A DNA stretch of 64,000 nt, taken from contig JADFXX010000003.1 of assembly GCA_015233335.1 (NCBI GenBank), forward strand, positions 29,694 to 93,693, in the 5' to 3' direction. Positions within the stretch are counted from its first letter, which is position 1; each line of letters begins with the position of its first letter. This stretch comes from Candidatus Omnitrophota bacterium. GTDB taxonomy: Bacteria; Omnitrophota; Gorgyraeia; Zapsychrales; Fredricksoniimonadaceae. Both the position numbers and the translations under genes were made by a program. The notes beneath the pieces are model-generated. The model saw nothing but the letters and a program-made list of their open reading frames with translations. It was not told the DNA's origin and ran no database searches. This document shows, piece after piece, positions 561 through 22,366 of the stretch.

Positions 561-1862
561 TTACCTGTAATAATTACCGATGTTCGTAAACATGATCGTT
601 AAGCTGATCATGAGCACACCGCCGGCTATCATCCAAAACAGAAGATGTATTTGAGCTTGCTTATGCTCTTCTAAAGATTCAACGGTATTGATTTTAGAAA
701 TAGCCCCCAACAAAGGAACGTTTAAATAAGCCGAAGCTTCGTGAACATCTAAAAAAGATTTATCTAAGAATTCCATTAAGAATATAAGAGTAACCCCCAA
801 GGCTGTTCCCATAAATAGACCGATCAAAGATACCAGTATTTTATTAGGCCTGACAGGCTGTGAAGGGACTCGGGCATTTTCGATGACCGTGTATCGTGTT
901 CCTTCTTTGGAAGACTGCAGACGCTGGGTGATCTTAGCTGTTTCCAGGCGTTGAAGCAGGTTATTATAAATAGTCTCATTCACGTTAACGTCACGGGCCA
1001 TAACAGTACCAATTTTGTCCATGAGCATGACTTTATAAAGGTCTTTTTCATTAACAGGAGCCGTATTGTCATTACTTGCAGCGGAAGTGGTGAGTGCTTT
1101 TTGCCCGATATTGCTCAGGGCTTGCTGAATCTGTGTGACCATAGGATTGGTTGTTTCTGATGTAAGTTTGACGTCTTGAGTATATTCCAGGTTCTGGGTC
1201 TTAAGTTCTTCCATTTTTTTAGTTATTTGATTTCTTAATTCTCTGACCTGGGGGTGCATTTCTGTGGAATCCACTAATAATGTGTTTAATTTGTCTTTAA
1301 GATCCGCGATTTCAGCGGATTTAATTTTTCCTAAATATACATGCAACTGCTCTTCTATGAATTTGATGGCATTGGTGGTTTCACGGTTCTGGGCGACTAC
1401 ATTACCTCCAATGAAAATATCGGTCACATTCTTGACTACAGCCTGGGCTTGTTGAGGACTGGTTGAAATATAAGAAATTTCAATGATGTTCCCATCGGGT
1501 TTAAAATCAATTTTACTTTGAAGGATTTTGATGAAATGTTCTAATTCTGTTGAGTTATGAATATTTTTGTCTAATTTTAAGCGTTTGACCAGTTCATTCA
1601 GGCTGTCCCAGCCCAGCATGGTTTCTTTGATGGTTTGAACACGTTGTGCCGCAGAGGTAGAAACGGCAATATTAGTTAAGAGCGGATTGTCATTTTTTTC
1701 TTCTTCTACCAGAATTTTCATGGATGAAAGGTATTCTTTGGGTAAAAGCATAGACGTGCAGATACCTAAAATTAATCCCACAAAAGAAGGAAAGATGATA
1801 AACCATTTTCTTCTGAAAAAAACTTTTAAATATTCTATGATTCCATGATGCATTTCATCCAT
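561..1862 (-). CDS. Wzz/GumC-type polysaccharide chain-length determinant protein
   Basis: 433 aa. N-terminal TM helix (WFIIFPSFVGLILGICTSMLL) followed by PKEY, long coiled-coil middle, C-terminal TM (ILVSLIGLFMGTALGVTLIFLM). No tyrosine-kinase domain. Flanked by Wza-like and ExeA-like genes. Confidence 0.75.
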   Translation of the reverse strand: MDEMHHGIIEYLKVFFRRKWFIIFPSFVGLILGICTSMLLPKEYLSSMKILVEEEKNDNPLLTNIAVSTSAAQRVQTIKETMLGWDSLNELVKRLKLDKNIHNSTELEHFIKILQSKIDFKPDGNIIEISYISTSPQQAQAVVKNVTDIFIGGNVVAQNRETTNAIKFIEEQLHVYLGKIKSAEIADLKDKLNTLLVDSTEMHPQVRELRNQITKKMEELKTQNLEYTQDVKLTSETTNPMVTQIQQALSNIGQKALTTSAASNDNTAPVNEKDLYKVMLMDKIGTVMARDVNVNETIYNNLLQRLETAKITQRLQSSKEGTRYTVIENARVPSQPVRPNKILVSLIGLFMGTALGVTLIFLMEFLDKSFLDVHEASAYLNVPLLGAISKINTVESLEEHKQAQIHLLFWMIAGGVLMISLTIMFTNIGNYYR

Positions 1863-1881
1863 GATATTTGTCCTTTACTTT

Positions 1882-2712
1882 TTAAAATGCATATTTTGCA
1901 GATCCGCCTGCTCCCGCTACCTCGCCAACAGGTTGGGTTACAGGACTTATGTAGCGCATAGCTTTAGCCAAGAAAGTAGCCGGCACATAAAGACAGTCGC
2001 CCGGATGCAGCACGTAATTCTCTCTTAAATCCCCTTTGTAAAGTAAGGCCTCAACATTAACTTTTTTTCTTATGACTTTACCGGTTGCCGCAGGGGTGAA
2101 TATTGAAGCGCTATCGGTCGCAGCTGTTGGAATGATCGGCAATCCGGCTTCCAATAAAGCATCGCGGACGGTGATCGTGTCTCCATGCATAGGAATTCTT
2201 CCCGGACGGGCAACTTCTCCTACAACATAGACGATTTTGCTATTATAGCCTGAAATTTTAAAGCTTATTTCTGGCCTGATAATATAGGTAGACAACTCTT
2301 TGGTTAAGAATTTAACGGCTTGTTCTTTGGTTAGGCCAGCCAAGACAATATCTCCAACAAATTCATATTGGATCTTTCCTTCCTTGTTAATGATATACTG
2401 GCCGCTGACTTCGGGGTGGCGCATCACAACGATGTCAATCACATCATCAGGACCCAAGGTGTACTTGCTGTTCTGTTCTATATAAGCCTGTGCTCCCGCA
2501 AAACTTTTAAATTCCCCGGAGCTCATTGTTGCTCGGATCTTGTCTTGATCGATGGCTTGCGTTGTGACGGATGATTTGTTTACGGCTTCGTCTTGGGTGG
2601 AGTTTTGATTGTTTAGCTGGTTTAGCGCATCTTGTGCTTCAACCTTTGGAATAAATATCAGTAAGCTCCATAGGGCCACTATTTGTAAAATTAAGAATTT
2701 AGATGTTGTCAT
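1882..2712 (-). CDS. Wza-family polysaccharide export outer-membrane protein (Poly_export + SLBB)
   Basis: Motifs PDDVIDIVVMRHPEVSGQYIINKEGKIQYEFVGDIVLAGLT and VYVVGEVARPGRIPM. Start moved from ORF-track 2793 to ATG at 2712, which gives the signal peptide MTTSKFLILQIVALWSLLIFIPKVEAQ and has an AAAGGAGAG SD just upstream. Confidence 0.8.
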   Translation of the reverse strand: MTTSKFLILQIVALWSLLIFIPKVEAQDALNQLNNQNSTQDEAVNKSSVTTQAIDQDKIRATMSSGEFKSFAGAQAYIEQNSKYTLGPDDVIDIVVMRHPEVSGQYIINKEGKIQYEFVGDIVLAGLTKEQAVKFLTKELSTYIIRPEISFKISGYNSKIVYVVGEVARPGRIPMHGDTITVRDALLEAGLPIIPTAATDSASIFTPAATGKVIRKKVNVEALLYKGDLRENYVLHPGDCLYVPATFLAKAMRYISPVTQPVGEVAGAGGSAKYAF

Positions 2713-2725
2713 GTACGGCTCTCCT

Positions 2726-2929
2726 TTATTCAACTTCAATAAGAATTTCATGTAATTGGCGTATTTGAGCCAAATCATTTTCATCATAAACACGCCAGCT
2801 TCGCCAATTACGCTTGGGCTTTTTGATTTTTCCCATTTTTTCCCACCTCACAATGGTTTTGGTGCTTATACCCACCATTTGAGCAACTTCGGTAATTGTC
2901 AGGTGTTTTTTGAATTCGCTTGTGATCAT
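2726..2929 (-). CDS. Small MerR/excisionase-type helix-turn-helix DNA-binding protein
   Basis: LTITEVAQMVGISTKTIVRWEKMGKI HTH. I prefer the ATG at 2929 (MITSEFKKH, 67 aa) because AAGGGGA lies 8 nt upstream and the ORF-track ATG at 2962 falls inside a sigma-54-like promoter. Confidence 0.65.
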   Translation of the reverse strand: MITSEFKKHLTITEVAQMVGISTKTIVRWEKMGKIKKPKRNWRSWRVYDENDLAQIRQLHEILIEVE

Positions 2930-2963
2930 AATTTTTATCCCCTTTGGTTCAACACCAAACATA

Positions 2964-2981
2964 TAGCAAATTACGTACCAA
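2964..2981 (-). promoter_or_regulatory. Candidate sigma-54 (-24/-12) promoter for the HTH-wza-wzz-ATPase operon
   Basis: Minus strand reads TTGGTACGTAATTTGCTA versus consensus YTGGCACGrNNNTTGCW. The GG and GC elements have correct spacing. About 35 nt upstream of the SD+ATG at 2929. Confidence 0.5.
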
Positions 2982-3171
2982 CAGCACAGTATTAATATTA
3001 ATTATGTGATAACTGATTGTTTGGTAAGGGGTTAAAATATTTTTCTTAGAAAATTCATCCCATAGCAGGTTAAGCCAACTGTATAAAAGAATGAACAGTA
3101 CTGTCCAGGAAATACCAGGACATTGGCAGAAATTATATCATATTTAGGCTTTTATGTGGTATATTTAATGC

Positions 3172-4518
3172 ATGCATCTCCAAGCGACCAGAGTCCAAGT
3201 TCAAAAGCCTGTTTTTACTGCCTCCCTAGAGAAGTCTATTGCAATGCTCATTTTACCGCATGCAGAGCTGGCTGTCAGTATTGAGCAAGAACTGCAGAAT
3301 AATCCGTTACTTGAAGCTGAGTATGAGAGCACATCAGAGGTTGATGTGGACCGGATGAATGCGCTTATAAACCTCTCTTTTTCTAAAATTCAAAGATCCG
3401 GCCTTGAAGAAGGCGCGGAGTTCGAGCCTTCTACGATTGAAGATCGGATGACCTTGGAAGACCACTTGCTTCAACAACTGTATTGGGAAATTTCTGATTC
3501 TTTAAAGAGAAAAATAGGTGAATTTATTATTGGGAATCTGGATCGAGAAGGCTTTCTTCATTTGAGCTGTACAGATATAGCCCAAGCCTTAAATATTACT
3601 GATGAACATGTTGTTAAAGAAGTGTTAAGAATTATCCAAAATTTTGATCCCGCCGGCATAGCCACTAAGGATTTTAAAGAATGTCTGATTGTTCAATTGC
3701 ATAGCCGCCAGTCGCCGTTTGGCGATTTGGCTATACGCATTGTAGAAAAATATCTGGATGACTTAGGGAACAAGCGTAACGGGGCTTTAGCTAAGAAACT
3801 GTCCGTCTCACTTGAGGAGATATCACATGCCGCTGATCTGATTGCCTCCCTTGAGCCTAAGCCGGCGCGTAATTACCGTCCTATTGATCCGACAATTTAC
3901 GTTGCTCCGGATCTTTACCTTCGTAAGAATGAGGATGGGCTATATACTATTGAAACAAATAAAACCGGTATACCTATTCTTCGTATTAATCAAATGTACC
4001 GTAATTTGCTTAATCAATCGGATATATCTGACAAGGACCGTCGTTTTATAAAGGAAAAAATTAATAATGCTATTAATTTCATCAGAAATATTCATCAACG
4101 CGGTAAGACTTTAACAGCTGTTGCCCGATACATTTTAAATCATCAAAAAGAATTCTTTGACGCAGAAGACATGTCCCTTAAGCCCATGGCCCTCAAAGAA
4201 GTGGCAGAGCATTTAGACAGAAATGAGTCAACCATTTCCCGTGCGATCAGTAACAAATACATAGATACCCCCCAGGGACTTTTCCCCTTGAAATTCTTCT
4301 TTTCCCATAATGCTTCAAGACAAAATCATGAAAACGTTTCAGCGCACACAGTTAAACAAGAGCTTGCTTTGTTGATCAAGGATGAGGACAAAAAAGCCCC
4401 TTTTTCCGATAGCGCTATTCAAGCCCACTTCAATTCCAAAGGAGTTCATTTGGCTCGCCGGACCATTGCCAAGTACCGCCAGATGCTCAATATCCCCGCC
4501 GCATATCTACGGAAATAA
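3172..4518 (+). CDS. rpoN: RNA polymerase sigma-54 factor
   Basis: 448 aa. Region I-like N-terminus (…SIEQELQNNPLLE), core-binding region, C-terminal HTH (ESTISRAISNKYIDTPQG) and RpoN box ARRTIAKYRQMLNIP. Confidence 0.9.
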   Translation: MHLQATRVQVQKPVFTASLEKSIAMLILPHAELAVSIEQELQNNPLLEAEYESTSEVDVDRMNALINLSFSKIQRSGLEEGAEFEPSTIEDRMTLEDHLLQQLYWEISDSLKRKIGEFIIGNLDREGFLHLSCTDIAQALNITDEHVVKEVLRIIQNFDPAGIATKDFKECLIVQLHSRQSPFGDLAIRIVEKYLDDLGNKRNGALAKKLSVSLEEISHAADLIASLEPKPARNYRPIDPTIYVAPDLYLRKNEDGLYTIETNKTGIPILRINQMYRNLLNQSDISDKDRRFIKEKINNAINFIRNIHQRGKTLTAVARYILNHQKEFFDAEDMSLKPMALKEVAEHLDRNESTISRAISNKYIDTPQGLFPLKFFFSHNASRQNHENVSAHTVKQELALLIKDEDKKAPFSDSAIQAHFNSKGVHLARRTIAKYRQMLNIPAAYLRK

Positions 4519-4523
4519 TGGTG

Positions 4524-4868
4524 TTATATTCCTGTTTTTGGAAGGAGTTTCTTAAGATATTTCTGGGAGGCGTCATCCATTTTAGAAAAATAAATAGCAA
4601 ATCCTTCGCCGGGGACAAACCGGGAAATATGGGCTGATCCCTGCATGAGGGCATCAGTATCATTAGGTGAAGATAAAATAGCAAAGCCTACCTCATCTCC
4701 GGTCTTTAAAAAAATGTTATTTTTGATCTTGATAAAAGCGCTATTCAAGGAAAGATCTTTAAGATGTCCTTGCACTGTTATTTGCGAGCCGACACTGATC
4801 CTGACCGGAAATTCAAGGCTGACCCGCGGATCCTTGCGTTGTTCATAATTTTCAATGGGATTAAACAT
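4524..4868 (-). CDS. Single-domain PilZ protein (putative c-di-GMP receptor)
   Basis: 114 aa. RxxxR motif (QRKDPRVSL) and a D-x-S-x-x-G-like DLSLNSAF in which the G is replaced. Confidence 0.6.
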   Translation of the reverse strand: MFNPIENYEQRKDPRVSLEFPVRISVGSQITVQGHLKDLSLNSAFIKIKNNIFLKTGDEVGFAILSSPNDTDALMQGSAHISRFVPGEGFAIYFSKMDDASQKYLKKLLPKTGI

Positions 4869-4881
4869 AAGGATAGTTCTT

Positions 4882-5625
4882 TCAATAGTCGACAGAAATC
4901 AGACAAAGCCCGTGGCTTGGAACTGTTCTGGGTGCTAATTTGCGTTCGGCGGATTTAAGCAGTAAAGGTATGCTATCTCCTGCCATCCGGCCGCATCCAA
5001 TGGCAATTAAAGCCCCTACAATGTTACGTACCATCTTATAAAGAAAACCATTAGATGTGATTGTAATATAGATCAAATCTCCTTGTTTGACAATAGTCAA
5101 ATTTATAATAGTACGAATGGTATTTTTGATCCTGGAACGCTTGCCGGCAGATTGAAATGGTTTAAAATCATGAGTACCTTTTAAATCATTGGCTGCTTGT
5201 CGCATACGGGATAATTTCAGCTTATATGGATAGAAATAAGCCCGATTCCTTAATAATGCCGAGGGGTAAGGACGGTTGAGTATAGAATAACGATAGGTTT
5301 TATTTATTACGTCCTTCTGGGCGTGGAAATGAAGCGGCACTTCCTCAAGCCCGGTAACGCTTAGGTCTTTGTCCAAAAAAGAATTAAGAGCTTTTAGGAT
5401 CAATGAGGCCGGCATTTCGGTTTCAACTTTAAAATGCGCAACCTGTCCAATTGCATGTACACCGCCGTCTGTGCGGCCGGATGCCTGGCAGTGTATTTTC
5501 TTTTTAAAGATCATTTCCAGCTTTTCTTCAAGATGATTTTGGATCGTGCGCAAACCTTTAAATTGAGTTTGCCAGCCGGAAAAATCAGTCCCATCGTATT
5601 CCAGGGTTAGTTTGAAATTTCGCAT
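4882..5625 (-). CDS. truA: tRNA pseudouridine(38-40) synthase
   Basis: 247 aa. GRTDGGVHA catalytic Asp motif and typical TruA length and layout. Confidence 0.9.
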   Translation of the reverse strand: MRNFKLTLEYDGTDFSGWQTQFKGLRTIQNHLEEKLEMIFKKKIHCQASGRTDGGVHAIGQVAHFKVETEMPASLILKALNSFLDKDLSVTGLEEVPLHFHAQKDVINKTYRYSILNRPYPSALLRNRAYFYPYKLKLSRMRQAANDLKGTHDFKPFQSAGKRSRIKNTIRTIINLTIVKQGDLIYITITSNGFLYKMVRNIVGALIAIGCGRMAGDSIPLLLKSAERKLAPRTVPSHGLCLISVDY

Positions 5626-8284: not shown

Positions 8285-9572
8285 TGTGATATCCTGCTTC
8301 TTGCAAGGTTTTTAAGGTCACCGGCCCACGGGCTATGATCTGCCAATGTGCCGGTATTGTAGCATAATCTGTCAAAAAATTCTTCACTGTTGAAGGGCTG
8401 GTAAAAATGACGCCCGCGATACTTAAGGATGGCAGGTCGCGTTTGGCCGGTTTGGTATTATTGTAAATAGTGATTTCTGTAACATGGGCGCCCATTAGAG
8501 TTAAAACATCTTTTAAAAATGGATTAGGCAATGATGAGCGTGGAAACAATATGCGTTTGCCTTTGACATTGATCTGTTGGGTCATTGTTTTTAAAAGACC
8601 CCGGGCTGTTTCATCTTGGGCTACAATTGCGGCTTTGATGTTATACTTTTGTAATGCCATGTGGGTGTGCTGCCCGACCACGGCAAAAGTTTTTTCTATA
8701 AAATTAACATCCGGCGCAATAGATAATAGTGTTTTTACAAAATGATCTACCGCAAAAGTGCTGGTGCACATAATGATATCCGAGGATTCAAATGCCTGGA
8801 GGATTTGTTTTTGGGAGGCTTTGTTGAATGCTACGGCCTTGATGTCGATCATAGGCCAATGGATGATTTTACCCAAACGAATGTAATTTTCCGGATGAGT
8901 GCCGCAATGCAAAAAAAGGCGGCGAACATCAAGCACGCTAAATAGATTTCTTAAATCATGGTCTTCATGACGGCCGACTACGGCCAATTGTCCTTGAAGG
9001 GGCATGCCTTCCCATGGAAAAATATCTGATATTTCTCCTTCAAGTTTGAGGCGTTTAAGGGCGCAGGCCGCAACGACGATACCGTCGAGTTGGCCGTTTT
9101 TCACTAACTGCAGACGCTCTGTGATGCTGCCGCGAATATTGACGATATTGACATCTGGACGCAGTTGGAGGATTTGATTTTGACGCAGAAGGCTGCTGGT
9201 GCCAACCTTCGCATGAGCTTCTAGCTGGCTCCAAGGCTTTCTTCCTACCCAGGCGTCTTTATTATCAAGACATTGCGTTAAAGCAAAGATATCCAAGCCT
9301 GCAGGGAAATGTTGCGGCAGGTCTTTGGCGCTGTGTATGGCGATATCTGCTTCTTTGGAAAGCAAAGCGTGATCAATAGCATCAGTAAAAAAATTGTCGG
9401 GGCTTGTGGTCAAAGGAGTCGTTTTATCCTTGTCCCCTGCGGTTTCATACTTAAGGAGTGTATAATTTACATTTGTTCCTAATAGTTTAAGACTCTGGAT
9501 AATTTCCTCGACTTGGGCCAAAGCTAATGGGCTTGAACGAGAAGCGATTTTTATAGGCAAATTCATAGACAC
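8265..9572 (-). CDS. hemCD: Fusion protein: HemC-like domains 1-2 (hydroxymethylbilane synthase) + uroporphyrinogen-III synthase HemD
   Basis: Residues 1 to about 212 align to HemC (IASRSSPLALAQ, HSAKDLP, GTSSLLRQ, IRGSITERL, LQGQLAVVGR). The sequence then passes directly into a HemD-like half (FAVVGQHTHMAL, KRILFPRSS, VIFTSPSTV). The HemC domain-3 segment with the cofactor Cys is not visible. Confidence 0.8.
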   Translation of the reverse strand: MSMNLPIKIASRSSPLALAQVEEIIQSLKLLGTNVNYTLLKYETAGDKDKTTPLTTSPDNFFTDAIDHALLSKEADIAIHSAKDLPQHFPAGLDIFALTQCLDNKDAWVGRKPWSQLEAHAKVGTSSLLRQNQILQLRPDVNIVNIRGSITERLQLVKNGQLDGIVVAACALKRLKLEGEISDIFPWEGMPLQGQLAVVGRHEDHDLRNLFSVLDVRRLFLHCGTHPENYIRLGKIIHWPMIDIKAVAFNKASQKQILQAFESSDIIMCTSTFAVDHFVKTLLSIAPDVNFIEKTFAVVGQHTHMALQKYNIKAAIVAQDETARGLLKTMTQQINVKGKRILFPRSSLPNPFLKDVLTLMGAHVTEITIYNNTKPAKRDLPSLSIAGVIFTSPSTVKNFLTDYATIPAHWQIIARGPVTLKTLQEAGYHNATSLS

Positions 9573-9577
9573 TTTTA

Positions 9578-10771
9578 TTAAATAAATATATACCGGTCAA
9601 CTACGTATTTTGAAAATGGAAAAGCACAGCTAAAAGCCGGAGATACCGCATTAAGAATATGGATGCTTTTGCGATCCCCTTCGATTACAAAATCTTGAAC
9701 AAGACTTAGGGTTTGCTTATTGAGCAACTGTGCCCTGATTCCGGGTTTGGTCCATGTTGTAAATCCTTGCGGGTCGATCGATTTAACCATGGCTGTGGCG
9801 AGAGAAACAAAATATTTCTTGTTGTATTTATGCATTTCTTCATGTGCCAGTGAACGGAAATTAAATGCATTATTCCAGTATAATTTAGATTCATAAAAGA
9901 GGATTTCACTTGTTTCTTTTAAGGAAAACCGGCTTTTGAAATCATAATTTTCACGCCAAAATGCCGGAATAGCAGTGGGCCCGATCTTAATGTCACCTGC
10001 CACGGTTTTGGTGTAGTGAACCCCAAGAAAAGGGTTTTTTAAATTAGGCACGGGATAAATGTTCATATTGATGTCAGTTTTATTTTTAGTATATTTTAGA
10101 TAAAGCCCCTTAAAAGGGATCATGGTATATTTCAACCCAAAGCCGAAATCCTGCGCGACACAATCCGCATAAAGTCCGGCACAATTAATGATTTTATCGG
10201 ATTCAAAATCGCCTTGACTGGTTTTGACAATATTTTGGATGTGGCTTAAATATTTAGCGTTAAATATAAAATTAACCCCAAGCTTGAAAAGGTCGTTTTT
10301 AAGGCTTGCGCATACCTCTTTGGGGTCAACACTGGCTGTGTCCGGAGAATATAAAGCGCGTTTAAAGGTTTTTACATTGGGGCTTAAATCAGAAGCCTCT
10401 TTCTCATCAATTAGACGGACATTGGAACCATTTTGTTTCCCGCGGCGTAAAAGCTCATCTAGTTGTTCTAGTTCACGCTCATTTTGGGCCACAACTAATT
10501 TACCGCATTCATTAATAGCCAAACCCTTGGCCTTCACATAGGCTTTCATGGCACGGCTTCCTTCGACTGTGAACTTGGCCTTGAGACTGTCCGCCGTATA
10601 ATAAAAACCTGCGTGTAAGACTCCGCTGTTTCGGCCTGAAGCGTGACAGGCTTCTAGCGGCTCTTTATCCAAAATTAAAATGCGGGCATCATGCCAGCGG
10701 TTTTTGATGGCCTGGGCGATTGTTAAGCCTATGATCCCTGAACCAATAATTAAAAAGTCAAATTTCTTCAT
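9578..10771 (-). CDS. lhgO: FAD-dependent L-2-hydroxyglutarate oxidase-like oxidoreductase
   Basis: 397 aa. GxGxxG FLIIGSGIIG. CHASGRNSGVLHAGFYYTADSLKAKF aligns closely to E. coli LhgO ([26 protein letters not shown]). NAVSPAFSCAF near the C-terminus. Confidence 0.7.
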   Translation of the reverse strand: MKKFDFLIIGSGIIGLTIAQAIKNRWHDARILILDKEPLEACHASGRNSGVLHAGFYYTADSLKAKFTVEGSRAMKAYVKAKGLAINECGKLVVAQNERELEQLDELLRRGKQNGSNVRLIDEKEASDLSPNVKTFKRALYSPDTASVDPKEVCASLKNDLFKLGVNFIFNAKYLSHIQNIVKTSQGDFESDKIINCAGLYADCVAQDFGFGLKYTMIPFKGLYLKYTKNKTDINMNIYPVPNLKNPFLGVHYTKTVAGDIKIGPTAIPAFWRENYDFKSRFSLKETSEILFYESKLYWNNAFNFRSLAHEEMHKYNKKYFVSLATAMVKSIDPQGFTTWTKPGIRAQLLNKQTLSLVQDFVIEGDRKSIHILNAVSPAFSCAFPFSKYVVDRYIFI

Positions 10772-15396: not shown

Positions 15397-16725
15397 TTAC
15401 AATGGGTGCCCTTTGAGAGCATGCGGGGTGGCATCGGTGATCATAACTTGGACTGTTTCCCCTATTTTATAGTCTTTCTTAGACAGGATGACCAACTTAT
15501 TGCCCCCTGTACGGCCAACAGAATGGTGTGAGGGTTTGTCTTGAGGTGTCGGTTCGATTAAGATCTCAAAGACCTGGCCGATATGGGCCCGGTTTTTCTT
15601 ATAAGTGATCTCATTTTGGACCTTGTTTAGGCGAAGGATGCGATCTGTTTTGACTGTTTCAGGTACTTGATCGGGGTATTTTTTGGCAGCAATGGTTCCT
15701 TGACGCTCGGAGTACTTGAAGCTAAAGGCAGAATCAAACTGTGCGTGAATGACGGCTTGAAGAGTTTCTTCAAATTCAGCATCTGTTTCGGTCGGAAAAC
15801 CTACGATAATATCTGTTGTTAAAGTAATATTTGGTATTTTGGAGCGTATTTTGTTGACAAGTTTGAGATATTCCCCTTTGGTGTACGTTCTGTTCATCAG
15901 ATTCAGCACGCGGTTATTAGCGGCCTGCAAAGGCAGGTGGACATGTTTGCATATTTTTGGGTTTGCCGCCATCAGATCAAGCAAACGGTCAGGAAAATCT
16001 TTAGGGTGAGGAGAAGTGAAACGGACACGTTCAATGCCTTCAACCCTGCTGACCTCGTCCATCAAATAAGCAAAATCATGATTCTCATAACGGTAAGAAT
16101 TAACGTTTTGGCCTAGTAGAGTGACCTGTTTAAAGCCTTCGCATGCAAGCTGGCGTACCTCTTTGAGTACATTCTCCGGTGAACGGCTGCGTTCTCGTCC
16201 CCGTGTATAAGGCACGACACAAAAGGTGCAAAAATTATCACACCCGCGCATGACCGCAATCCATGCATTGACTCCATCAGTGCGGTTTGGGGTAATATCC
16301 GAATAGGTTTCAAATTCGGACAAAGTCACATCATATGCTTTTTGGCCGTTGTCAGCCGCCTCGCGAATTAATTGCCCCAGACGTTTGTAGCTGTCGGGTC
16401 CGGCGATAAAATCGATCTTTAGACTGCGGTCTTCTAATAAAGACTGGCGTAAATTGGTGGCCATACAGCCTAAAATGCCGATCATGACCAAGGAGTCCTT
16501 GCCCCGCTCATGACGGATGTTATGGACACGGCCATAGACTCTGCGATGGGCATGTTCGCGTACGGCACAGGTGTTAAGAAGAACAATATCCGCTTTCAGT
16601 TCATCAGTGACAAACTCATAGTTCTCTTTTATGAGGATCGAACGCACAAGTTCTGAATCATACTCGTTCATTTGACAGCCGTAGGTCTCTAGGAAAACTT
16701 TTTTCTGTAAAGTGTTATTTATCAC
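15397..16725 (-). CDS. miaB: tRNA-2-methylthio-N6-dimethylallyladenosine synthase
   Basis: 442 aa. ETYGCQMNEYDSE N-terminal domain, radical SAM CDNFCTFC and a C-terminal TRAM domain. GTG start at 16725. Confidence 0.92.
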   Translation of the reverse strand: MINNTLQKKVFLETYGCQMNEYDSELVRSILIKENYEFVTDELKADIVLLNTCAVREHAHRRVYGRVHNIRHERGKDSLVMIGILGCMATNLRQSLLEDRSLKIDFIAGPDSYKRLGQLIREAADNGQKAYDVTLSEFETYSDITPNRTDGVNAWIAVMRGCDNFCTFCVVPYTRGRERSRSPENVLKEVRQLACEGFKQVTLLGQNVNSYRYENHDFAYLMDEVSRVEGIERVRFTSPHPKDFPDRLLDLMAANPKICKHVHLPLQAANNRVLNLMNRTYTKGEYLKLVNKIRSKIPNITLTTDIIVGFPTETDAEFEETLQAVIHAQFDSAFSFKYSERQGTIAAKKYPDQVPETVKTDRILRLNKVQNEITYKKNRAHIGQVFEILIEPTPQDKPSHHSVGRTGGNKLVILSKKDYKIGETVQVMITDATPHALKGHPL

Positions 16726-16785
16726 GGATTAATAAAAAATCATATTCGTTCAACGGTTAAAATTTTTAGATGAACGAGTATGATT
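16726..16785 (-). terminator. Hairpin + U-tract abutting the miaB start: candidate terminator of higBA and/or miaB 5'-UTR structure
   Basis: Arms 16771-16785 (TGAACGAGTATGATT) and 16738-16752 (AATCATATTCGTTCA) pair at 14 of 15 positions with an 18-nt loop. On the minus strand this is followed by TTTTTATTAATCC and then the miaB GTG. Confidence 0.4.
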
Positions 16786-16803
16786 TTGTCTTTCAATATC
16801 AAA

Positions 16804-17148
16804 TTAAATATGTCCAGCAAGTAAAACGTGGGTTGTAGCAAACTTCTCTTCTTTAATTTTAGGTTTGATGATGATTTCCACATCACGGTCTAATGCGTTA
16901 AGCAATTCAAATAAATGGTCTAAAGAAAACATGCTTAACTTACCATTCATTAGACAGGAGACCTTTGATTGAGGGATGCCTAAAAGCTCTGCCGCTTGCT
17001 TTTGAGTCAACCCTTTATCCATAATTATTTCTTTTATACGAATCATTATTTGAGAACGAACCAACACCCTTTCAGGATGAGGCAAACCAATATCTGCAAA
17101 AACATTGCCACTTCCTCTATAAACTTTTTCTTTTGTATTCATAAGCAC
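16804..17148 (-). CDS. higA: HigA-like XRE-family HTH antitoxin
   Basis: 114 aa. GLTQKQAAELLGIPQSKVSCLMNGK HTH. Immediately downstream of the Gp49/HigB-like toxin gene (3-nt gap), in toxin-first order. Confidence 0.75.
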   Translation of the reverse strand: MLMNTKEKVYRGSGNVFADIGLPHPERVLVRSQIMIRIKEIIMDKGLTQKQAAELLGIPQSKVSCLMNGKLSMFSLDHLFELLNALDRDVEIIIKPKIKEEKFATTHVLLAGHI

Positions 17149-17151
17149 CTC

Positions 17152-17514
17152 TCATGTATGGTCAAACTTATATAATTCTTCTGCTAATTTCAACCTTTGC
17201 TTAATTAATTCGATTTCATGCTGCGGTGTTTTAATACCCCTTTTTGACTTCTTTTGAAAACAATGTAAAACATAAATAACTTTGGCAAATTTAACAGTGT
17301 AAACTGCTCGGTATGTATCCCCAACAAAATTTTCAATAATCTCTAAAACACCCGCTCCTCCGAATCCTTTTAACGGTTTCGCCTCTGTTGGTTTTATACC
17401 CATTTGTACTTCATGAAGCGCATGTCCTATCTCTTGCTTCACTTCATCAGGAAATTCTTTTAAATCATCCCGAGACGAACCTATGAAATCCAACCTTTTA
17501 AGTTCAATGCTCAT
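17152..17514 (-). CDS. higB: HigB/RelE-superfamily toxin (phage Gp49-like, DUF891)
   Basis: Start taken at MSIELKRLDFIGSSRDDLKEFPDEV (ATG 17514). GAGVLEIIENFVGDTYRAVYTVKF…YVLHCFQKKSKRGIKTP is typical of the Gp49-like toxin family. Confidence 0.75.
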   Translation of the reverse strand: MSIELKRLDFIGSSRDDLKEFPDEVKQEIGHALHEVQMGIKPTEAKPLKGFGGAGVLEIIENFVGDTYRAVYTVKFAKVIYVLHCFQKKSKRGIKTPQHEIELIKQRLKLAEELYKFDHT

Positions 17515-17594
17515 TTTAAATATACCACATTTGATATAAGCAGGCAAAATTTTATGCGTAAACTTTTTCCAAGAACCCAATTAAACTCGGAACA

Positions 17595-17636
17595 TACTGA
17601 ACCCATCGGCCAACCGTAACTTTCTAGAAAAACGTT
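17595..17636 (-). repeat. Partial copy of the miaB 5' coding end plus an 18-nt junction motif (copy B)
   Basis: Minus strand AAC GTT TTT CTA GAA AGT TAC GGT|TGG CCG ATG GGT TCA GTA. Compare miaB AAA GTT TTC CTA GAG ACC TAC GGC|TGT CAA. It begins at the alkD-like stop codon. Confidence 0.7.
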
Positions 17637-18307
17637 CATCCTGCCACGTCAATATTTTTGAGCCTAAATTCCCGAAGGGCATCGGTGGCAATCCATCGAG
17701 CACTCTTTGAGGGAATTGCCTGCATGTCTTGAGCCGTTTCAATGGCAATTTTATTAAGGGCCTTGTTCCGTTTGCCAATTTGTCTTAAAGCCCAATTGAC
17801 CGCCTTTTTGACAAAATTCCGTTCATCAATGGCACCTCTAATAATAAGCGGGAAAAACGACAGAAAATTCTTGTCATCAGCTTCTTTATCATGAACTGCC
17901 AGGCAGGCCATCAAAACAAACCCCGCACGTTTAATAAATTCTTTCTCTTTATTTGACCATTCGACGGCCATGGAGTAAGCAAAAGGAGTTTTATCAAAAA
18001 GATTACTGCAAACCTGGTCGCAGATATCCCAACTATCGAAATCTTTCACCCAGCTGTTTATTTGTTTCTTGGTTACCATGGCGGGCACATCAATAAAGCC
18101 AGCCAAAAGGCGTGCCTCATGGATGCCAGAATCCCATAATTCCAAAGCCATAGTATGATTTTTACCAATCTCTTTGGCCATTTGACGCAAAACAGGGATG
18201 CTAACGCCCAAAGTATTATGTGTGTTAATCCCAAATCTTGCCATTCCCTCAACATTTCTTGGATTAGCCTGATTTTTTAGCTGTTGAATGATATTTTGAA
18301 AGCTCAT
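17636..18307 (-). CDS. DNA alkylation repair protein (AlkD-like HEAT-repeat family)
   Basis: 223 aa. NPRNVEGMARFGINTHNTLGVSIPVLRQMAKEIGKNH…ELWDSGIHEARLLA…WVKDFDSWDICD matches the PF08713-type pattern. Confidence 0.75.
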   Translation of the reverse strand: MSFQNIIQQLKNQANPRNVEGMARFGINTHNTLGVSIPVLRQMAKEIGKNHTMALELWDSGIHEARLLAGFIDVPAMVTKKQINSWVKDFDSWDICDQVCSNLFDKTPFAYSMAVEWSNKEKEFIKRAGFVLMACLAVHDKEADDKNFLSFFPLIIRGAIDERNFVKKAVNWALRQIGKRNKALNKIAIETAQDMQAIPSKSARWIATDALREFRLKNIDVAG

Positions 18308-18400
18308 TTAATAATTTTCTACTCCGCCCTTCCAAATAGAACGCCGGTCATTATACCTCAAATATGGATTTGATTTAAATAACTAACAAAAGTCATGTAA

Positions 18401-18523
18401 TACTGCAACCAACGGCCAGCCGTAGGTTTCTAAAAATACTTTTTTCCGTAATGTGTTATTTGTTATTATGTTAAAAAAAACCGTATACGTTTAACGGTTA
18501 AATTCTTTAGATAAACGGTATTT
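18401..18523 (-). pseudogene. Displaced, startless copy of the miaB 5' end with diverged miaB leader (copy C)
   Basis: Minus strand ACA AAT AAC ACA TTA CGG AAA AAA GTA TTT TTA GAA ACC TAC GGC|TGG CCG TTG GTT GCA GTA. This gives 15 in-frame codons matching miaB codons 2-16, with GTG replaced by ATA. The upstream part resembles 16726-16790. Confidence 0.7.
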
Positions 18524-18607
18524 GATGTTTAGCGTTCTAAGACATCTTACGATTCTTCGTCGCTATCGCTCCTCAGAATGACGATTTTCTCTATGTGCGC
18601 TAAACAT
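18524..18607. repeat. About 85-nt MITE-like insert with 10-nt terminal inverted repeats
   Basis: ATGTTTAGCG (18525-18534) and CGCTAAACAT (18598-18607) are flanked by the near-duplicates AGATAAACGGTAT and CGATAAACGAGTAT. It interrupts the hairpin-like part of copy C. Confidence 0.3.
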
Positions 18608-18773
18608 TAACGATAAACGAGTATGACTTATAAGTGCTGTTTTGGAATATTTTTTGCCCAATAGCAGTTGCCCTGAATTTCCGGGTAACTGAAGCCTTAT
18701 TAAGCTCTTTTTCTTTAAAGAGATTTATAATATGCTCACCTTATAGTTTTGACATCTCCATTGAAAAGCTCTG

Positions 18774-19193
18774 CTATCTGTTTGGACAGATCTTGCGTTG
18801 ATCGTTGATTGCTTTTTCTAATTGGGCTGGCTGGTCAGTGCCTATATAATAGGCCATGCCGTTCTTCATTTTTAGTTCAATAGTATCAAATCCAGAGACA
18901 TTGAACAGCCATCGTTTCCCCCAACCATGAATACCCCAAGAACAGCATTTTGTTTTTGAAATTTGACAATTTTCAATACTTTTAAGTCTAAATTTTTTCC
19001 GTATAATTCCCGGGCCAAATGCAATATTAACGTTTTCAGCGTCAACAGATACTGTCAGCGTTGCGAATAAAACAGCTAAAATGGATAAAATCCAAACTGA
19101 CAACGCGCTGACATTTAAGAAAAATGTGATCATAGCCGCGGCACCTAAAGAACAAATGATAACCCAACCGATTTGCGTGTGTTTATAAATCAT
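18774..19193 (-). CDS. Hypothetical membrane protein (two N-terminal TM helices + small soluble domain)
   Basis: 139 aa. TM helices IGWVIICSLGAAAMITFFL and VWILSILAVLFATLTV. The start overlaps the GIY-YIG stop (ATGA). I recognise no family. Confidence 0.5.
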   Translation of the reverse strand: MIYKHTQIGWVIICSLGAAAMITFFLNVSALSVWILSILAVLFATLTVSVDAENVNIAFGPGIIRKKFRLKSIENCQISKTKCCSWGIHGWGKRWLFNVSGFDTIELKMKNGMAYYIGTDQPAQLEKAINDQRKICPNR

Positions 19194-19492
19194 ATCAATG
19201 AATCCTTTAACAATTCGTTGAAGGTTATTTTGGTCTTAAATTTTTGAACTAATTCTTCCTTTTCTTTACGAGGCAAACTCTTAATTTTAATTTCATTATT
19301 TATGGCGTGCTTATAATACCCATACTTTTTTAGATAGACTAATTTTAGAGGTTGACGACCTCTAAGATATTTTGCCCCACGACCCTTTGAATGCAAATCG
19401 AAGCGTTTTTTAATGTCATTAGTATATCCGGTATAATAAGTGTTTCGTTTATCCTCAATAATATACACGAAAAAAAGACCATGTCTTTTCAT
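19190..19492 (-). CDS. GIY-YIG nuclease family protein (UPF0213/YhbQ-like)
   Basis: 100 aa. FFVYIIEDKRNTYYTGYTNDIKKRFDLHSKG…GAKYLRGR is a classic GIY-YIG layout. Confidence 0.8.
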   Translation of the reverse strand: MKRHGLFFVYIIEDKRNTYYTGYTNDIKKRFDLHSKGRGAKYLRGRQPLKLVYLKKYGYYKHAINNEIKIKSLPRKEKEELVQKFKTKITFNELLKDSLI

Positions 19493-20031
19493 TTATTGGA
19501 AGCCTGATCAGATGCTTTTTTAAGATCTTCAAGGAAATTAGGGTTTATAGTTCCTCCTAATTCTTCTGCTTTATATACGTCTAACCAGGCTTTAGTATAT
19601 TCTTTTGTGTTATACCAAGAAAGCGCGCGGTTGATATAGGCCTTTGTATAATTTGGATTAATTTGTATGGCATGGGTAAAATCGGCAATTGAATCTGATA
19701 AGTTGCCCTGCTTGGCATACGAATGGCCGCGATTATTGTAGGCTTCTGCATCATTAGGGTTATTGGCAATAGCCATTGTAAAATCAGCAATGCTTTCGGT
19801 CAAATACCCCAGTTCGGCATAGATGACTCCGCGGTTATTATAAGCTTTTGTAATGTTGGGATCGATATCAATGGCCTTGGTGTAGTCTGAAACAGCCTTC
19901 GCATAGTAACTTTGTTTATAGTAGGCATTGCCACGATCCAAGTAGTCCTCTGCTGTTTGTGCATAAACATCACAGCTTAATAATAAACCGCTGATTATAA
20001 AAAATGAAACAAAACTGTTGAATAATATCAT
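19489..20031 (-). CDS. TPR-repeat lipoprotein
   Basis: 180 aa. Lipobox-like LLLSC, then four tandem TPR units (…AYNNRG.IYA.LG…). Confidence 0.7.
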   Translation of the reverse strand: MILFNSFVSFFIISGLLLSCDVYAQTAEDYLDRGNAYYKQSYYAKAVSDYTKAIDIDPNITKAYNNRGVIYAELGYLTESIADFTMAIANNPNDAEAYNNRGHSYAKQGNLSDSIADFTHAIQINPNYTKAYINRALSWYNTKEYTKAWLDVYKAEELGGTINPNFLEDLKKASDQASNK

Positions 20032-20540
20032 GAGTGAGTAAGGATTCGAGTATATGTATTATAGTTAATTTCATTGAAACAAACAAAGATGACTTTATTG
20101 ACTTGAGATCCCAATATATTGTCTTTGACCGTCCTAATAGCTATTTGTGCGGCGCGTTCAATGGGGAAACAATAAACACCTGTGCTGATAGCGGGAAATG
20201 CGATTGAGCGAATTAGATTTTCTTGGGCTAGTTTCAACGAATTGCGATAGCAATTGGCAAGAAGGGTGTCTTCATTTTGACTTCCGTCCTGCCATACAGG
20301 TCCCACCGTATGAATAACAAATTTAGACGGCAGTGCGTAGGCTTTTGTTATTTTGGCCTCCCCTGTTCTGCAGCCATGCAAGGTGAGGCATTCTGCTAAA
20401 AGCAATGGTCCCGCAGCCCTATGAATGGCCCCATCAACACCGCCACCGCCCAAAAGGGTGGAATTCGCTGCATTGACAATTGCATCCACATGTTCTTTGG
20501 TAATGTCACCAAGTTTAGCTTCTATGAGTTCATTGGACAT
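20028..20540 (-). CDS. Macro domain protein (O-acetyl-ADP-ribose deacetylase, YmdB-like)
   Basis: 170 aa. GDITKEHVDAIVNAANSTLLGGGGVDGAIHRAAGP and SIAFPAISTGVY. Confidence 0.85.
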   Translation of the reverse strand: MSNELIEAKLGDITKEHVDAIVNAANSTLLGGGGVDGAIHRAAGPLLLAECLTLHGCRTGEAKITKAYALPSKFVIHTVGPVWQDGSQNEDTLLANCYRNSLKLAQENLIRSIAFPAISTGVYCFPIERAAQIAIRTVKDNILGSQVNKVIFVCFNEINYNTYTRILTHS

Positions 20541-22365
20541 ATTTATATTTATGGTCGACCGCCAATAAAAGTTTCTTTAACGCAGATAAAACATTAGGAT
20601 CTTTTCCGTGGGCCAGCAGCTGGCGGGAATACCTGTTCATGGCATCCATGTCATTTAATCCGGCATAGGCTTGAACTAAGCCAAATAGAGATGCATCTTC
20701 ATTAGGAATAATGTCTAAACTCATCTGATAGAATTCAACTGCTTGTTTATAATTTGACTCCAATAAGGCAATAAATCCAAGATTGTCATAGGCTTCGATA
20801 CAATATTTGTCTAGTTTTATGGTTTTTAAAAACGCATCTTTAGCTAATTTGTAGTCCTTTTGGTTAAAATAGATGACGCCAAGATTATTATAGGATGAAG
20901 AGAATTTAGGATCCAATTGGACAGATAAAAGAAATTCTTCTCGGGCCTGGTTTATCGATCCTAACTGCGCATCGATTAGACCTAAGTTATAATAGATGCT
21001 GGCATCCGGTTTTTTCTCAAGGGCTTTAGAAAAATAATACCTGGCTTGCCGGTATTCTTTTTTTCTTACGTAATAGTTTGCAAGATAAGTATTATTAATG
21101 GCCGGAAGAGGATCGATTTGTTGGGACCAATAAAAATAATAATTGTACTCATCCCCCCAAATACGATTATAGTCACGTACAAGAGCGATCATCATAACTA
21201 TTAAAATAATAAAAATTATAAGAAATCCTTTGTTCCAATAGGAATACAATTTAAGGCCGATCAAGGAAATAAATATAAAAAATCCCACCGAAGCGAATGT
21301 GACCCATTGAGGCTCAATAAGAAGACCGTAAAAGGTTTTATCGTAAGGCGGATAAGCGGCTAGAAACACGGGAATAAAACCCATCAATAGCCATGTCACA
21401 CAAAAGAATATGATGCTTCTTGAGTTTCTTTTTAGTAATAGTCCCCAGCCTCCAAGCAATGCCAGAAGACCTATGAGCCAGATAAAAGCATTGAACCCTC
21501 TCATCCAAGGGCTATTCCAGAAAAACACAATGCCCTGAGGACAAAACAATTTAGAAATATACAAATAAATGATTTTAGAGAATGTCGATAAATAAGTTAC
21601 CGGATGCATGTGAGCAACAGGCAAGGTTGAGTGGAGATCGGTGCACTGAAACCTGAAAATGAGGTAAACGAGAAGAATAAACCAGTAGGGCCAGCTTTTG
21701 AGCAAAGCTCGTTTAAAATCCATCTGTTTAAAATAGAAGCCTGCGAAGAAAACGTAAAATGGCAAAACAATAGATGTCTCATGGCACATTAGAGCCACTA
21801 CAAAACAAATAAAACTTGCCGCATAAAGAATGTATTTGCAGGATCCCTCTAAGGCTTTCAGGAAACAAATTAAAATCAAAAACATACAGATAAAGCGGAC
21901 AGCATGAAGAGTGGACGTAATGTAATCAACATAAAATACATTGATGGGATGGACAGCAAATAAGAGACTTGTTGTAAGCCCTAAGGCCGTATTTTTAAAG
22001 AAAAGATCAATAAAAATATAGACCATAAAACACATCAGGGAAAATAATATCAGATTAACAATATGGTAGCCAAAAGGGTTATTCCCGAAAGACAGATAAG
22101 AAATCAGGAAAATGATATGCGCGACCGGCCGGTAATAATTATCGCTGACATTAAAGATTGCTCCTTTTTCAAAGCCCAAAGAAGGGTAAAAAAAGGTGTT
22201 GGGGAGGAATTTGATATTGTTAAGTTTGATATCAGAGAATACAGGGCCGTCATCGATCATGAAGGCATTGTGTAAGCTGTTGCTATAGGCAATAAAGGAG
22301 ACCCCTAATAAAGCGAAGAAAACAATCACAAGTTCGAATTTTCTTAAAATAATTAAATGACGCAT
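20530..22365 (-). CDS. Polytopic membrane protein with C-terminal TPR repeats (TMTC/GT-C glycosyltransferase-like)
   Basis: 611 aa. N-terminal AYSNSLHNAFMIDDGPVF (TMTC/DUF1736-like), more than 10 predicted TM helices, and about 5 C-terminal TPR units. Confidence 0.55.
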   Translation of the reverse strand: MRHLIILRKFELVIVFFALLGVSFIAYSNSLHNAFMIDDGPVFSDIKLNNIKFLPNTFFYPSLGFEKGAIFNVSDNYYRPVAHIIFLISYLSFGNNPFGYHIVNLILFSLMCFMVYIFIDLFFKNTALGLTTSLLFAVHPINVFYVDYITSTLHAVRFICMFLILICFLKALEGSCKYILYAASFICFVVALMCHETSIVLPFYVFFAGFYFKQMDFKRALLKSWPYWFILLVYLIFRFQCTDLHSTLPVAHMHPVTYLSTFSKIIYLYISKLFCPQGIVFFWNSPWMRGFNAFIWLIGLLALLGGWGLLLKRNSRSIIFFCVTWLLMGFIPVFLAAYPPYDKTFYGLLIEPQWVTFASVGFFIFISLIGLKLYSYWNKGFLIIFIILIVMMIALVRDYNRIWGDEYNYYFYWSQQIDPLPAINNTYLANYYVRKKEYRQARYYFSKALEKKPDASIYYNLGLIDAQLGSINQAREEFLLSVQLDPKFSSSYNNLGVIYFNQKDYKLAKDAFLKTIKLDKYCIEAYDNLGFIALLESNYKQAVEFYQMSLDIIPNEDASLFGLVQAYAGLNDMDAMNRYSRQLLAHGKDPNVLSALKKLLLAVDHKYKYVQ

Positions 22366-22366
22366 G

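Follow-up and report, generated by a model that had tools for sequence, protein, structure and literature searches.

Ccr serine recombinases mobilise tandem staphylococcal cassette chromosome (SCC) cassettes at rlmH (orfX), including cassettes that carry no recombinase and are excised in trans (PMC11470126), and psi-SCC elements without ccr have been described as well (bioRxiv 10.1101/336396). The dusA-specific islands, which use DAI integrases, integrate at the 5' end of dusA, provide a new 5' coding sequence and leave the remnant of the old 5' end behind (PMC4482086). The locus considered here lies in a 64,000-nucleotide stretch of a Candidatus Omnitrophota bacterium (GenBank assembly GCA_015233335.1, contig JADFXX010000003.1, positions 29,694 to 93,693 of the forward strand; the whole stretch is called the window below). 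In it the 5' end of miaB is present three times, and the copies bracket two small cassettes, one with a HigBA toxin–antitoxin pair and one with an AlkD-like DNA alkylation repair gene. The copies are regarded as probably being attachment-site junctions that arose by serial site-specific insertion of cassettes at a TG dinucleotide of miaB, with a large serine recombinase (LSR) as the class of enzyme. Literature searches turned up no account of miaB being targeted by a serine recombinase, nor of arrays of this kind in Omnitrophota.

The closest analogue would be a composite island of the SCCmec type. In both cases a serine recombinase inserts at one site in a conserved RNA-modification gene that is kept intact, the gene-proximal junction would be re-usable, and tandem arrays bounded by attachment (att) sites include recombinase-less cassettes with defence or accessory cargo. 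The target differs, being the 5' end of miaB (codon 17) here and the 3' end of rlmH in SCC, and an element at miaB must therefore supply a ribosome site, a start codon and 9–35 codons. The cassettes are also far smaller, at 0.1–3.5 kb compared with 17–68 kb for SCC cassettes (PMC11470126). The att module at miaB is ~90–150 nt long and miaB-derived, and the host belongs to an uncultivated phylum.

The dusA islands, dusA also being a tRNA-modification gene, and SXT/R391, which likewise replaces the 5' end of its target gene prfC, have in common with the miaB locus that integration occurs in a 5' coding end, that new 5' sequence is supplied and that the old end persists as a remnant. Those systems use tyrosine integrases and are large, usually single islands or prophages, whereas a serine recombinase, a 2-bp crossover and tandem mini-cassettes characterize the miaB site. 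Integron arrays are similar in having small, mostly co-oriented cassettes rich in toxin–antitoxin genes, recombination modules of ~100 nt and one fixed site, but at miaB there is no IntI and no attC or GTTRRRY core, and the anchor is a housekeeping gene rather than an attI beside intI. In the tycheposon islands of Prochlorococcus, integrative elements accrete in tandem at tRNA genes. Repeated integration at one gene end, with partial target copies bracketing cargo that includes recombinase-less modules, is common to both, although tycheposons use tyrosine recombinases and tRNA 3' ends.

The features of the window locus are given below in window coordinates; P' denotes the element arm to the right of TG, and HMM a hidden Markov model built from junctions.

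15397..16725, minus strand: intact miaB, 442 aa, GTG start (Pfam UPF0004, Radical_SAM and TRAM)
16676..16725, minus strand: junction A, with the working miaB 5' arm at 16678-16725, TG at 16677-16676, then native miaB TCAAATGAAC... (from the sequence; HMM match up to the break)
16731..16792, minus strand: leader hairpin and U-tract, located ~10 nt ahead of the miaB start (from inverted repeats I4 and I6)
16678..17610, minus strand: HigBA cassette, 933 bp, between the TG dinucleotides of B and A
16804..17148, minus strand: higA-like antitoxin gene, probable ATG at 17142 (Pfam HTH_37, E 2e-24)
17152..17514, minus strand: higB-like toxin gene (Pfam Gp49, E 1e-27)
17511..17639, minus strand: 42-codon open reading frame (ORF) spanning junction B (ORF list)
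17552..17640, minus strand: junction B, attL/attP-like, with displaced arm ATGAACGTTTTTCTAGAAAGTTACGGT at 17639-17613, TG at 17612-17611 and P' at 17610-17552 (HMM)
17613..18416, minus strand: AlkD cassette, 804 bp, between the TG dinucleotides of C and B
17636..18307, minus strand: AlkD-like DNA alkylation repair gene (Pfam DNA_alkylation, E 9e-37)
18361..18464, minus strand: junction C, attL-like, with arm at 18464-18419, TG at 18418-18417 and P' at 18416-18361 (HMM and alignment)
18465..18630, minus strand: diverged leader of copy C, in two parts, 18465-18530 and 18611-18630 (repeats D1 and D5)
18531-18610: 80-nt insert resembling a miniature inverted-repeat transposable element (MITE), splitting the copy C leader, with 10-bp inverted ends ATGTTTAGCG/CGCTAAACAT
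19190..19492, minus strand: GIY-YIG gene on the far side of the insertion (Pfam GIY-YIG; 74% identical to the orthologue in contig L152)

Copies A and C fall within a 101-nt direct repeat (16676-16776 and 18417-18517) of 78% identity, and their Smith–Waterman score of 103 compares with a mean of 19.3 for dinucleotide shuffles (z=30). By the same controls the local alignment of B with C reached z=9.7, while A versus B alone was not significant (z=1.9), copy B being short. The junction HMM, made solely from junctions of other metagenomes, gave E 6e-19 at C and E 4e-16 at B, where the match was full-length (17552-17640), while its match to A stopped at the break. A 20-nt pattern across the break occurred three times in the 64 kb, compared with 0.07 occurrences expected. 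An earlier, sequence-only reading of this DNA had proposed that the miaB 5' end is present three times at these positions and that the cargo comprises a toxin–antitoxin pair and a DNA alkylation gene; all of this held, the copies lying on the minus strand and exceeding shuffled controls, and the cargo by Pfam matches to Gp49, HTH_37 and DNA_alkylation. Its observations on copy C were also reproduced: the start codon has been lost by mutation to ATA, five of the seven codon differences between A and C outside it are synonymous and two non-synonymous, and the leader does continue beyond the interruption, where it was detected as repeat D5 (18601-18629). Copy B has an ATG of its own (17639-17637), which overlaps the alkD stop codon.

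A, B and C share the core ..TAYGGY TG, after which B and C continue into the same element arm, giving the boundary core ACGGY TG GCCGWTGG. The break had been placed just before the first conserved Cys codon of miaB, but identity of the copies instead ends after TG, the first two bases of that codon (codon 17), and all three window junctions switch there. The displaced copies all read TGG because the element arm begins with G. Sharing between B and C beyond the break is real, as had been claimed, but extends over ~60 nt rather than 18, and the shared arm in turn resembles miaB, though it is strongly diverged. Exact matches to the 18-nt post-break motif were found in the window only at B and C, and elsewhere the motif occurs at miaB-type junctions, so that it is not a generic repetitive extragenic palindromic (REP) element.

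Displaced miaB 5' ends were first met outside the window in genome contigs L002 and L007. A metagenome scan with the pattern GARASYTAYGGYTGGCMGWTGG then gave 61 loci, of which about half belonged to an unrelated gene and ~27 were junctions of the same build, comprising a miaB-like 5' arm, TG and a conserved ~60-nt element arm starting GCCGWTGG (consensus GCCGWTGGGTGCAGTATTGTACGGCTTTTGTTGAGTTTTTAAGGAGAATTTAC). Many junctions stood in tandem immediately before an intact miaB, whose downstream gene order matched that of the window. Two junctions each were found before miaB in L119 and L135 and one each in L124 and L081; L103 held three junctions in 2.5 kb, and L125, L096, L104 and L117 held two each. 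Tandem cassettes between att repeats, some of them recombinase-less, were present in the window (two), L119, L135, L103, L125, L096 and L104. The MiaB proteins of array-bearing contigs were 74–79% identical to that of the window, which in turn was 74-83% identical to Omnitrophota MiaB proteins, with 76-83% for its best matches; exact-protein look-ups of the window MiaB and AlkD proteins gave no record. Alternative cargo at the same site, whose absence would have counted against the sequence-only reading, was common in other contigs. Between junctions lay genes for ParE, RhuM-Fic, DUF4160 with DUF2442, zeta toxin, Doc and an AbiEii-like nucleotidyltransferase, the cargo of the family being mostly toxin–antitoxin genes. 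No viral contigs with the junction pattern were found.

Contig L129 (oriented, 1069-4800) has a junction with a different element arm, TGGCAGATGG.., which is also seen in L002, L102 and L104. It is followed by >5 kb of cargo, judged by eye to be AbiE-like, DUF1643 and ArdA-like, and L129 probably represents a larger element of a second arm type. Three pseudo 5' ends are present in L118, with no miaB after them.

Several comparisons place the point of exchange at the junction itself, and the same cassettes recur behind different left neighbours. Same-cargo junction pairs had the higher identity to the right of TG (0.75 versus 0.63), an excess absent on the left (0.70 versus 0.72); for L081 and L121, identity was 0.94 to the right and 0.61 to the left. 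The window cassette, a type II HigBA pair with a Gp49/HigB-like toxin followed by a helix-turn-helix (HTH) antitoxin, recurred with its element arm in L122 (77% nt identity to the window over 625 nt), in L125, where it stands behind a zeta-toxin cassette, and as a remnant in L136. At ~110-1500 of L122 (oriented) an insertion sequence (IS) with its transposase on the opposite strand lies inside the HigBA element arm, with a duplicated TTTATT. A MazE/Doc cassette with its arm was similarly found in L096 and L136 with different left arms. Unrelated sequences were joined at the same nucleotide in L101 (TACGGCTG joined to AGTG), L129 and L007, and left arms as short as 5-14 nt still preceded the element arm in L103 and L081. 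Most displaced arms keep the start codon and reading frame, and in the last 8 codons the displaced and resident arms differed by 26 synonymous and 12 non-synonymous codon changes, which fits each displaced arm having once served as a real miaB 5' end.

Empty sites were sought, as the sequence-only reading had suggested, and were found. In L152, the closest relative (MiaB 83% identical), the GIY-YIG orthologue overlaps the miaB start and no junction is present. The site was also empty in L155-162, in the P0035 species (24 contigs) and in L001. A scar without cargo, consisting of a displaced arm, a 50-95 nt spacer and a working start, was found in the P0004 species (24 contigs) and in L007. The scars lie in L142-L151 (~9916-10003 in L142) and at 1064-1176 in L007, where the spacer is a strong hairpin; their displaced arm reads MKIFLETYGW... 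Upstream of miaB the P0004 strains differ from one another (L144 18-1700; L145, L148, L150), some having an ISL3 transposase insertion and one having a tyrosine-recombinase gene and a second C-terminal recombinase fragment.

The enzyme was reached through gene calls. Some MiaB gene calls wrongly start at MNEYDS because the gene overlaps a recombinase gene, and these calls pointed to L166, where the gene for a 561-aa protein carrying Resolvase, Recombinase and Zn_ribbon_recom domains terminates within the 5' region of miaB. Read in a different frame, the 3' end of this recombinase gene encodes the MiaB N-terminus, ..GKRKTTVLLETYG followed by CQMNEYDS. A recombinase of 561-595 aa directly upstream of and overlapping miaB was found in L166/167, L171, L172-175 and L003/L221; in every chromosomal context fetched, it adjoined miaB upstream and its 3' end encoded the MiaB N-terminus. 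The replacement arm in these recombinase-bearing elements encodes ..GKRKxxVLLETYG. The domains of an LSR, absent from the window, are thus present at the same site in L166, L171, L172-175 and L221. There were 493 recombinase homologues at E<=1e-60, and the few with a named source were mostly from Omnitrophota/Omnitrophica. In 21 family members from the relatives, the residues Y6, R8, V9, S10, T11 and Q14 of the catalytic YxRVST..Q motif were invariant. The earlier statement that the window contains no recombinase was correct, whereas for the mobilising enzyme, which had been called unknown or lost, the LSR located at this site in related contigs is the likely candidate. Viral contigs searched with the recombinase profile yielded only two close relatives; in a phage-like contig, L176, an uninterrupted attP adjoins the recombinase gene. 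A 59-aa gene with a faint HTH_17 match is located directly upstream of the recombinase gene (L173 8371-8550; L174, L175), and, with HTH_17 taken to be an excisionase-like domain, its product is a candidate directionality factor. One and the same recombinase, P0160, accompanies different cargo in L172 and L173.

One complete element, L221, was obtained by walking upstream in the L003 genome. It is 16,854 bp long, encodes HipBA, a type I restriction system with a TIR protein, and the recombinase, and has both junctions. Its attL is ..ACCTACGGC TG GCCATTGG.. (written out, ATGAAAAAAATATTTTTAGAAACCTACGGC TG GCCATTGGCCACGGTATAGACGCAT) and its attR ..ACCTATGGA TG CCAAATGA.. (written out, ..GTGCTTTTGGAGACCTATGGA TG CCAAATGAAC). 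TG is flanked by C and G in attL and by A and C in attR; since the bases differ on both sides, exchange took place within TG, in agreement with the 2-bp staggered cut that serine recombinases make. The P' arm in this attL also occurs in L110, L116, L134 and L104 and shares GCCRTTGG...CAGTAT with the window arms; in L221, L110 and L134 the junction HMM alignment extends 20-29 nt into such P' arms, with its HMM end at 50-59. Together with the junctions, the empty sites and the varied cargo, the recombinase and L221 support what the sequence-only reading had proposed, namely serial site-specific insertion that supplies replacement miaB 5' ends and leaves the old ones as scars.

In the proposed mechanism, an incoming circle would carry a left arm that mimics the start of miaB (ribosome site, start codon, ..VFLETYG), then TG, then the right arm P' (GCCGWTGG..CAGTAT.., ~60 nt). 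Recombination would join the resident 5' arm to P' and the cargo, always giving TGG and a dead displaced 5' end, and would join the incoming arm to the remainder of miaB, so that MiaB stays intact. Because the incoming arm must encode the same N-terminus (..VFLETYG), the 20-27 nt beside TG would remain as in the native site and the miaB-proximal junction would be target-like. By analogy with SCC, the regenerated junction would be a competent target at which further insertion is possible. Each window cassette can be read in this order: the AlkD cassette consists of element arm P', a promoter-like site, the alkD-like gene and a 27-nt replacement miaB 5' arm, and the HigBA cassette of element arm P', a promoter-like site, higB, higA, leader and replacement miaB 5' arm. 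Arm C would have been resident; the AlkD cassette would have displaced it and brought arm B, and the HigBA cassette would then have displaced B and brought arm A, which forms its right end, together with the hairpin leader. Arm C is the most decayed, having lost its start codon and received the MITE-like insert, which fits this order. The window has no recombinase, and its two cassettes would therefore be recombinase-less satellites or relics, the former presumably inserted by an LSR acting in trans. The predicted circle junctions are GAAAGTTACGGT-TG-GCCGTTGGTTGCAG for the AlkD cassette and GAGACCTACGGC-TG-GCCGATGGGTTCAG for the HigBA cassette; loss of a single cassette would join arm C to GCCGATGGGTTCAG, and the predicted empty site has arm C joined to TG-TCAAATGAAC.

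Several observations weigh against insertion by an LSR at the window locus. No recombinase was found in the window, either by tblastn with the LSR or by Pfam on 20 ORFs, and the array-bearing metagenome contigs also contain no LSR, no recombinase remnant being found by tblastn in any array. The window P' (type I) is tied to the LSR-associated P' (type III) by a partial identity of ~25 nt only, and the similarity between the L176 attP and the window element arm is weak (z<=4.5), too weak for homology to be claimed. The scan pattern forced conservation of the 22-nt core, so that core invariance is partly built in by the search, although junctions found only by HMM do vary within it. No excised circle or strain polymorphism was seen for an array-bearing species; strain-level array variation was sought in P0004 and P0035 (24 contigs each), neither of which has an array, one having a fixed 85-bp scar. 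Canonical serine integrases, moreover, recombine only attP with attB, and re-use of a hybrid junction is non-canonical and is assumed here from SCC.

The absence of recombinase genes from the arrays would be explained if each cassette had once been a full recombinase-bearing element at TG that lost its recombinase and most of its cargo to internal deletion, leaving a fixed array that no longer moves. Decay of this kind does occur, as L006 retains only the C-terminal 139 aa of the recombinase beside miaB and L136 shows fused, eroded cassettes, and the window itself has no recombinase and a copy C with a MITE-like insert and no start codon. Such relics are nevertheless considered unlikely to account for the arrays: the right ends of the cassettes contain no trace of a recombinase 3' end but short native-like or hairpin-leader arms, the tblastn result extends to remnants, and the same compact combinations of arm and cargo recur in different arrays.

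Very little probability is given to RecA-dependent, Campbell-type homologous recombination of circles or transformed DNA carrying the miaB 5' end, with the sharp break reflecting selection against TGG CCG mutations in the working gene. The post-break arm is indeed a miaB segment, if highly diverged, and even AAGGAGAATTTAC corresponds to the KKENY codons; an intermediate form, MDEYDFEIG, exists in L097, and the displaced and resident arms of L135 differ at 1/48 nt, which fits gene conversion. Homologous exchange would not be expected, however, to join unrelated sequences at exactly the same nucleotide (L101, L129, L007), to place element arms behind left arms of 5-14 nt, or to switch the flanking bases on both sides of a 2-bp interval as in L221, and a dedicated LSR is present at the site. 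That the copies are functional regulatory leaders, upstream ORFs rich in UNN codons that mimic the MiaB N-terminus and were duplicated to control the cassette genes, is barely credible. Retention of start codon and frame, the excess of synonymous differences and the ATGA overlaps of the junction B ORF with both neighbours would suit such leaders, but past the break substitutions have no synonymous bias and the peptides terminate at varying positions, the start codon is missing from copy C, and the empty sites, varied cargo and recombinase at the same nucleotide would be left unexplained. Site-specific insertion at TG by an LSR is thus retained as the probable origin of the junctions.

Other known mobilities were considered and rejected. 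The core is unlike the GTTRRRY/RYYYAAC of integron attC, GTTGGGT being present only in the T variant and without a RYYYAAC partner, and no IntI was found in the window or in the Pfam-annotated array contexts. No dif-like 11-6-11 site of a Xer/dif-type module was seen by eye. Two arrays have genes for IS200-like or REP-associated tyrosine transposase (RAYT)-like Y1 transposases 0.8-1.3 kb upstream (L118, oriented, 4847-5272; L121, oriented, 9347-10024); transposition of the IS200/IS605 or RAYT kind was discounted since such genes are near only these two and the ends behave otherwise. GIY-YIG homing was set aside because the gene is a conserved neighbour and stands beside only 2/~13 arrays. A small GIY-YIG gene (89-100 aa) recurs beside miaB or the first junction in the window, L152 (9748-10017), L104 (1348-1644) and L016. 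A conserved hairpin across the junction was excluded, no covarying stem being present in 19 aligned junctions.

A more ambitious possibility is entertained tentatively, namely that the junction modules are live attP-like sites and form an LSR-based, integron-like platform for gene capture in Omnitrophota, with a self-regenerating landing pad inside miaB. Sub-kilobase, recombinase-less cassettes might then be inserted, excised and shuffled in trans, a proposal made with equal reserve. No firmer is the suggestion that displaced miaB start signals, together with a promoter in the element arm, could drive expression of the cargo. A promoter-like TTTAAA-18-TATAAT is present at 18379-18350 in the AlkD cassette. 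The genes around junction B are linked in series by ATGA overlaps: the stop codon of alkD runs into the start of the 42-codon ORF (17511-17639), and the TGA of that ORF into the ATG of higB. This arrangement suggests translational coupling across the junction; the ORF itself has no Pfam match. Such a short junction-spanning ORF resembles ORF-11 at integron attI, and may couple translation into the first cassette gene.

The leader of miaB is itself unusual. The 5' arm of its hairpin (16770-16785) is complementary at 16/16 positions to the miaB codons for MNEYDS (16656-16671); the 3' arm copies the codons for QMNEYD, and the 5' arm is consequently complementary to the coding region as well. The same hairpin was found in eight junctions or genes of other contigs, with one compensatory change of G-C to A-T, and contigs with the conserved hairpin include L135, L119, L124, L096, L097 and L101. 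Hairpin and U-tract look like a terminator, yet there is no space for a promoter before miaB. Searches for known RNA families and tRNA genes gave none within 16400-19300. The core of the MITE-like insert in the copy C leader, GTCATTCTGAGGAGCGATAGCGACGAAGAATC, occurs once in the window, and the L006 leader contains a similar motif, ..GGGAATGAC...

Between the GIY-YIG gene and copy C lies an ORF for a 139-aa membrane protein (18774-19193), which has no Pfam match, is absent from the closest relative and may represent an older insertion without a recognisable junction. The whole interval from the conserved DUF386 gene to miaB is hypervariable (window 16726-22366, compared with L142, L152, L155, L163, L165 and L168), and among relatives it holds Macro, RRM, START, DUF1761, GST, TPR, serpin and methyltransferase genes; the variability therefore reaches well beyond the part marked by junctions. 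Among the MiaB proteins P0001-P0060, overall identity is 70-83%, yet the N-termini ahead of ETYGC are unrelated, as in MKVFLETYGC, MINNTLQKK.. and ..GKRKLTVLLETYGC. This mosaic fits repeated replacement of the gene's 5' end.

Serial insertion at miaB would be the first mobile-element system, with its attachment site, found described for Omnitrophota. It would account both for the mosaic N-termini of MiaB upstream of ETYGC and for the hypervariable interval upstream of the gene, and would extend SCC-type logic to the 5' end of a gene, where translation signals and an N-terminus have to be carried, and to cassettes of integron size. LSRs with defined attP and attB sites are tools for genome engineering, and a family that regenerates its own target would, if this is true, be a natural system for serial integration.

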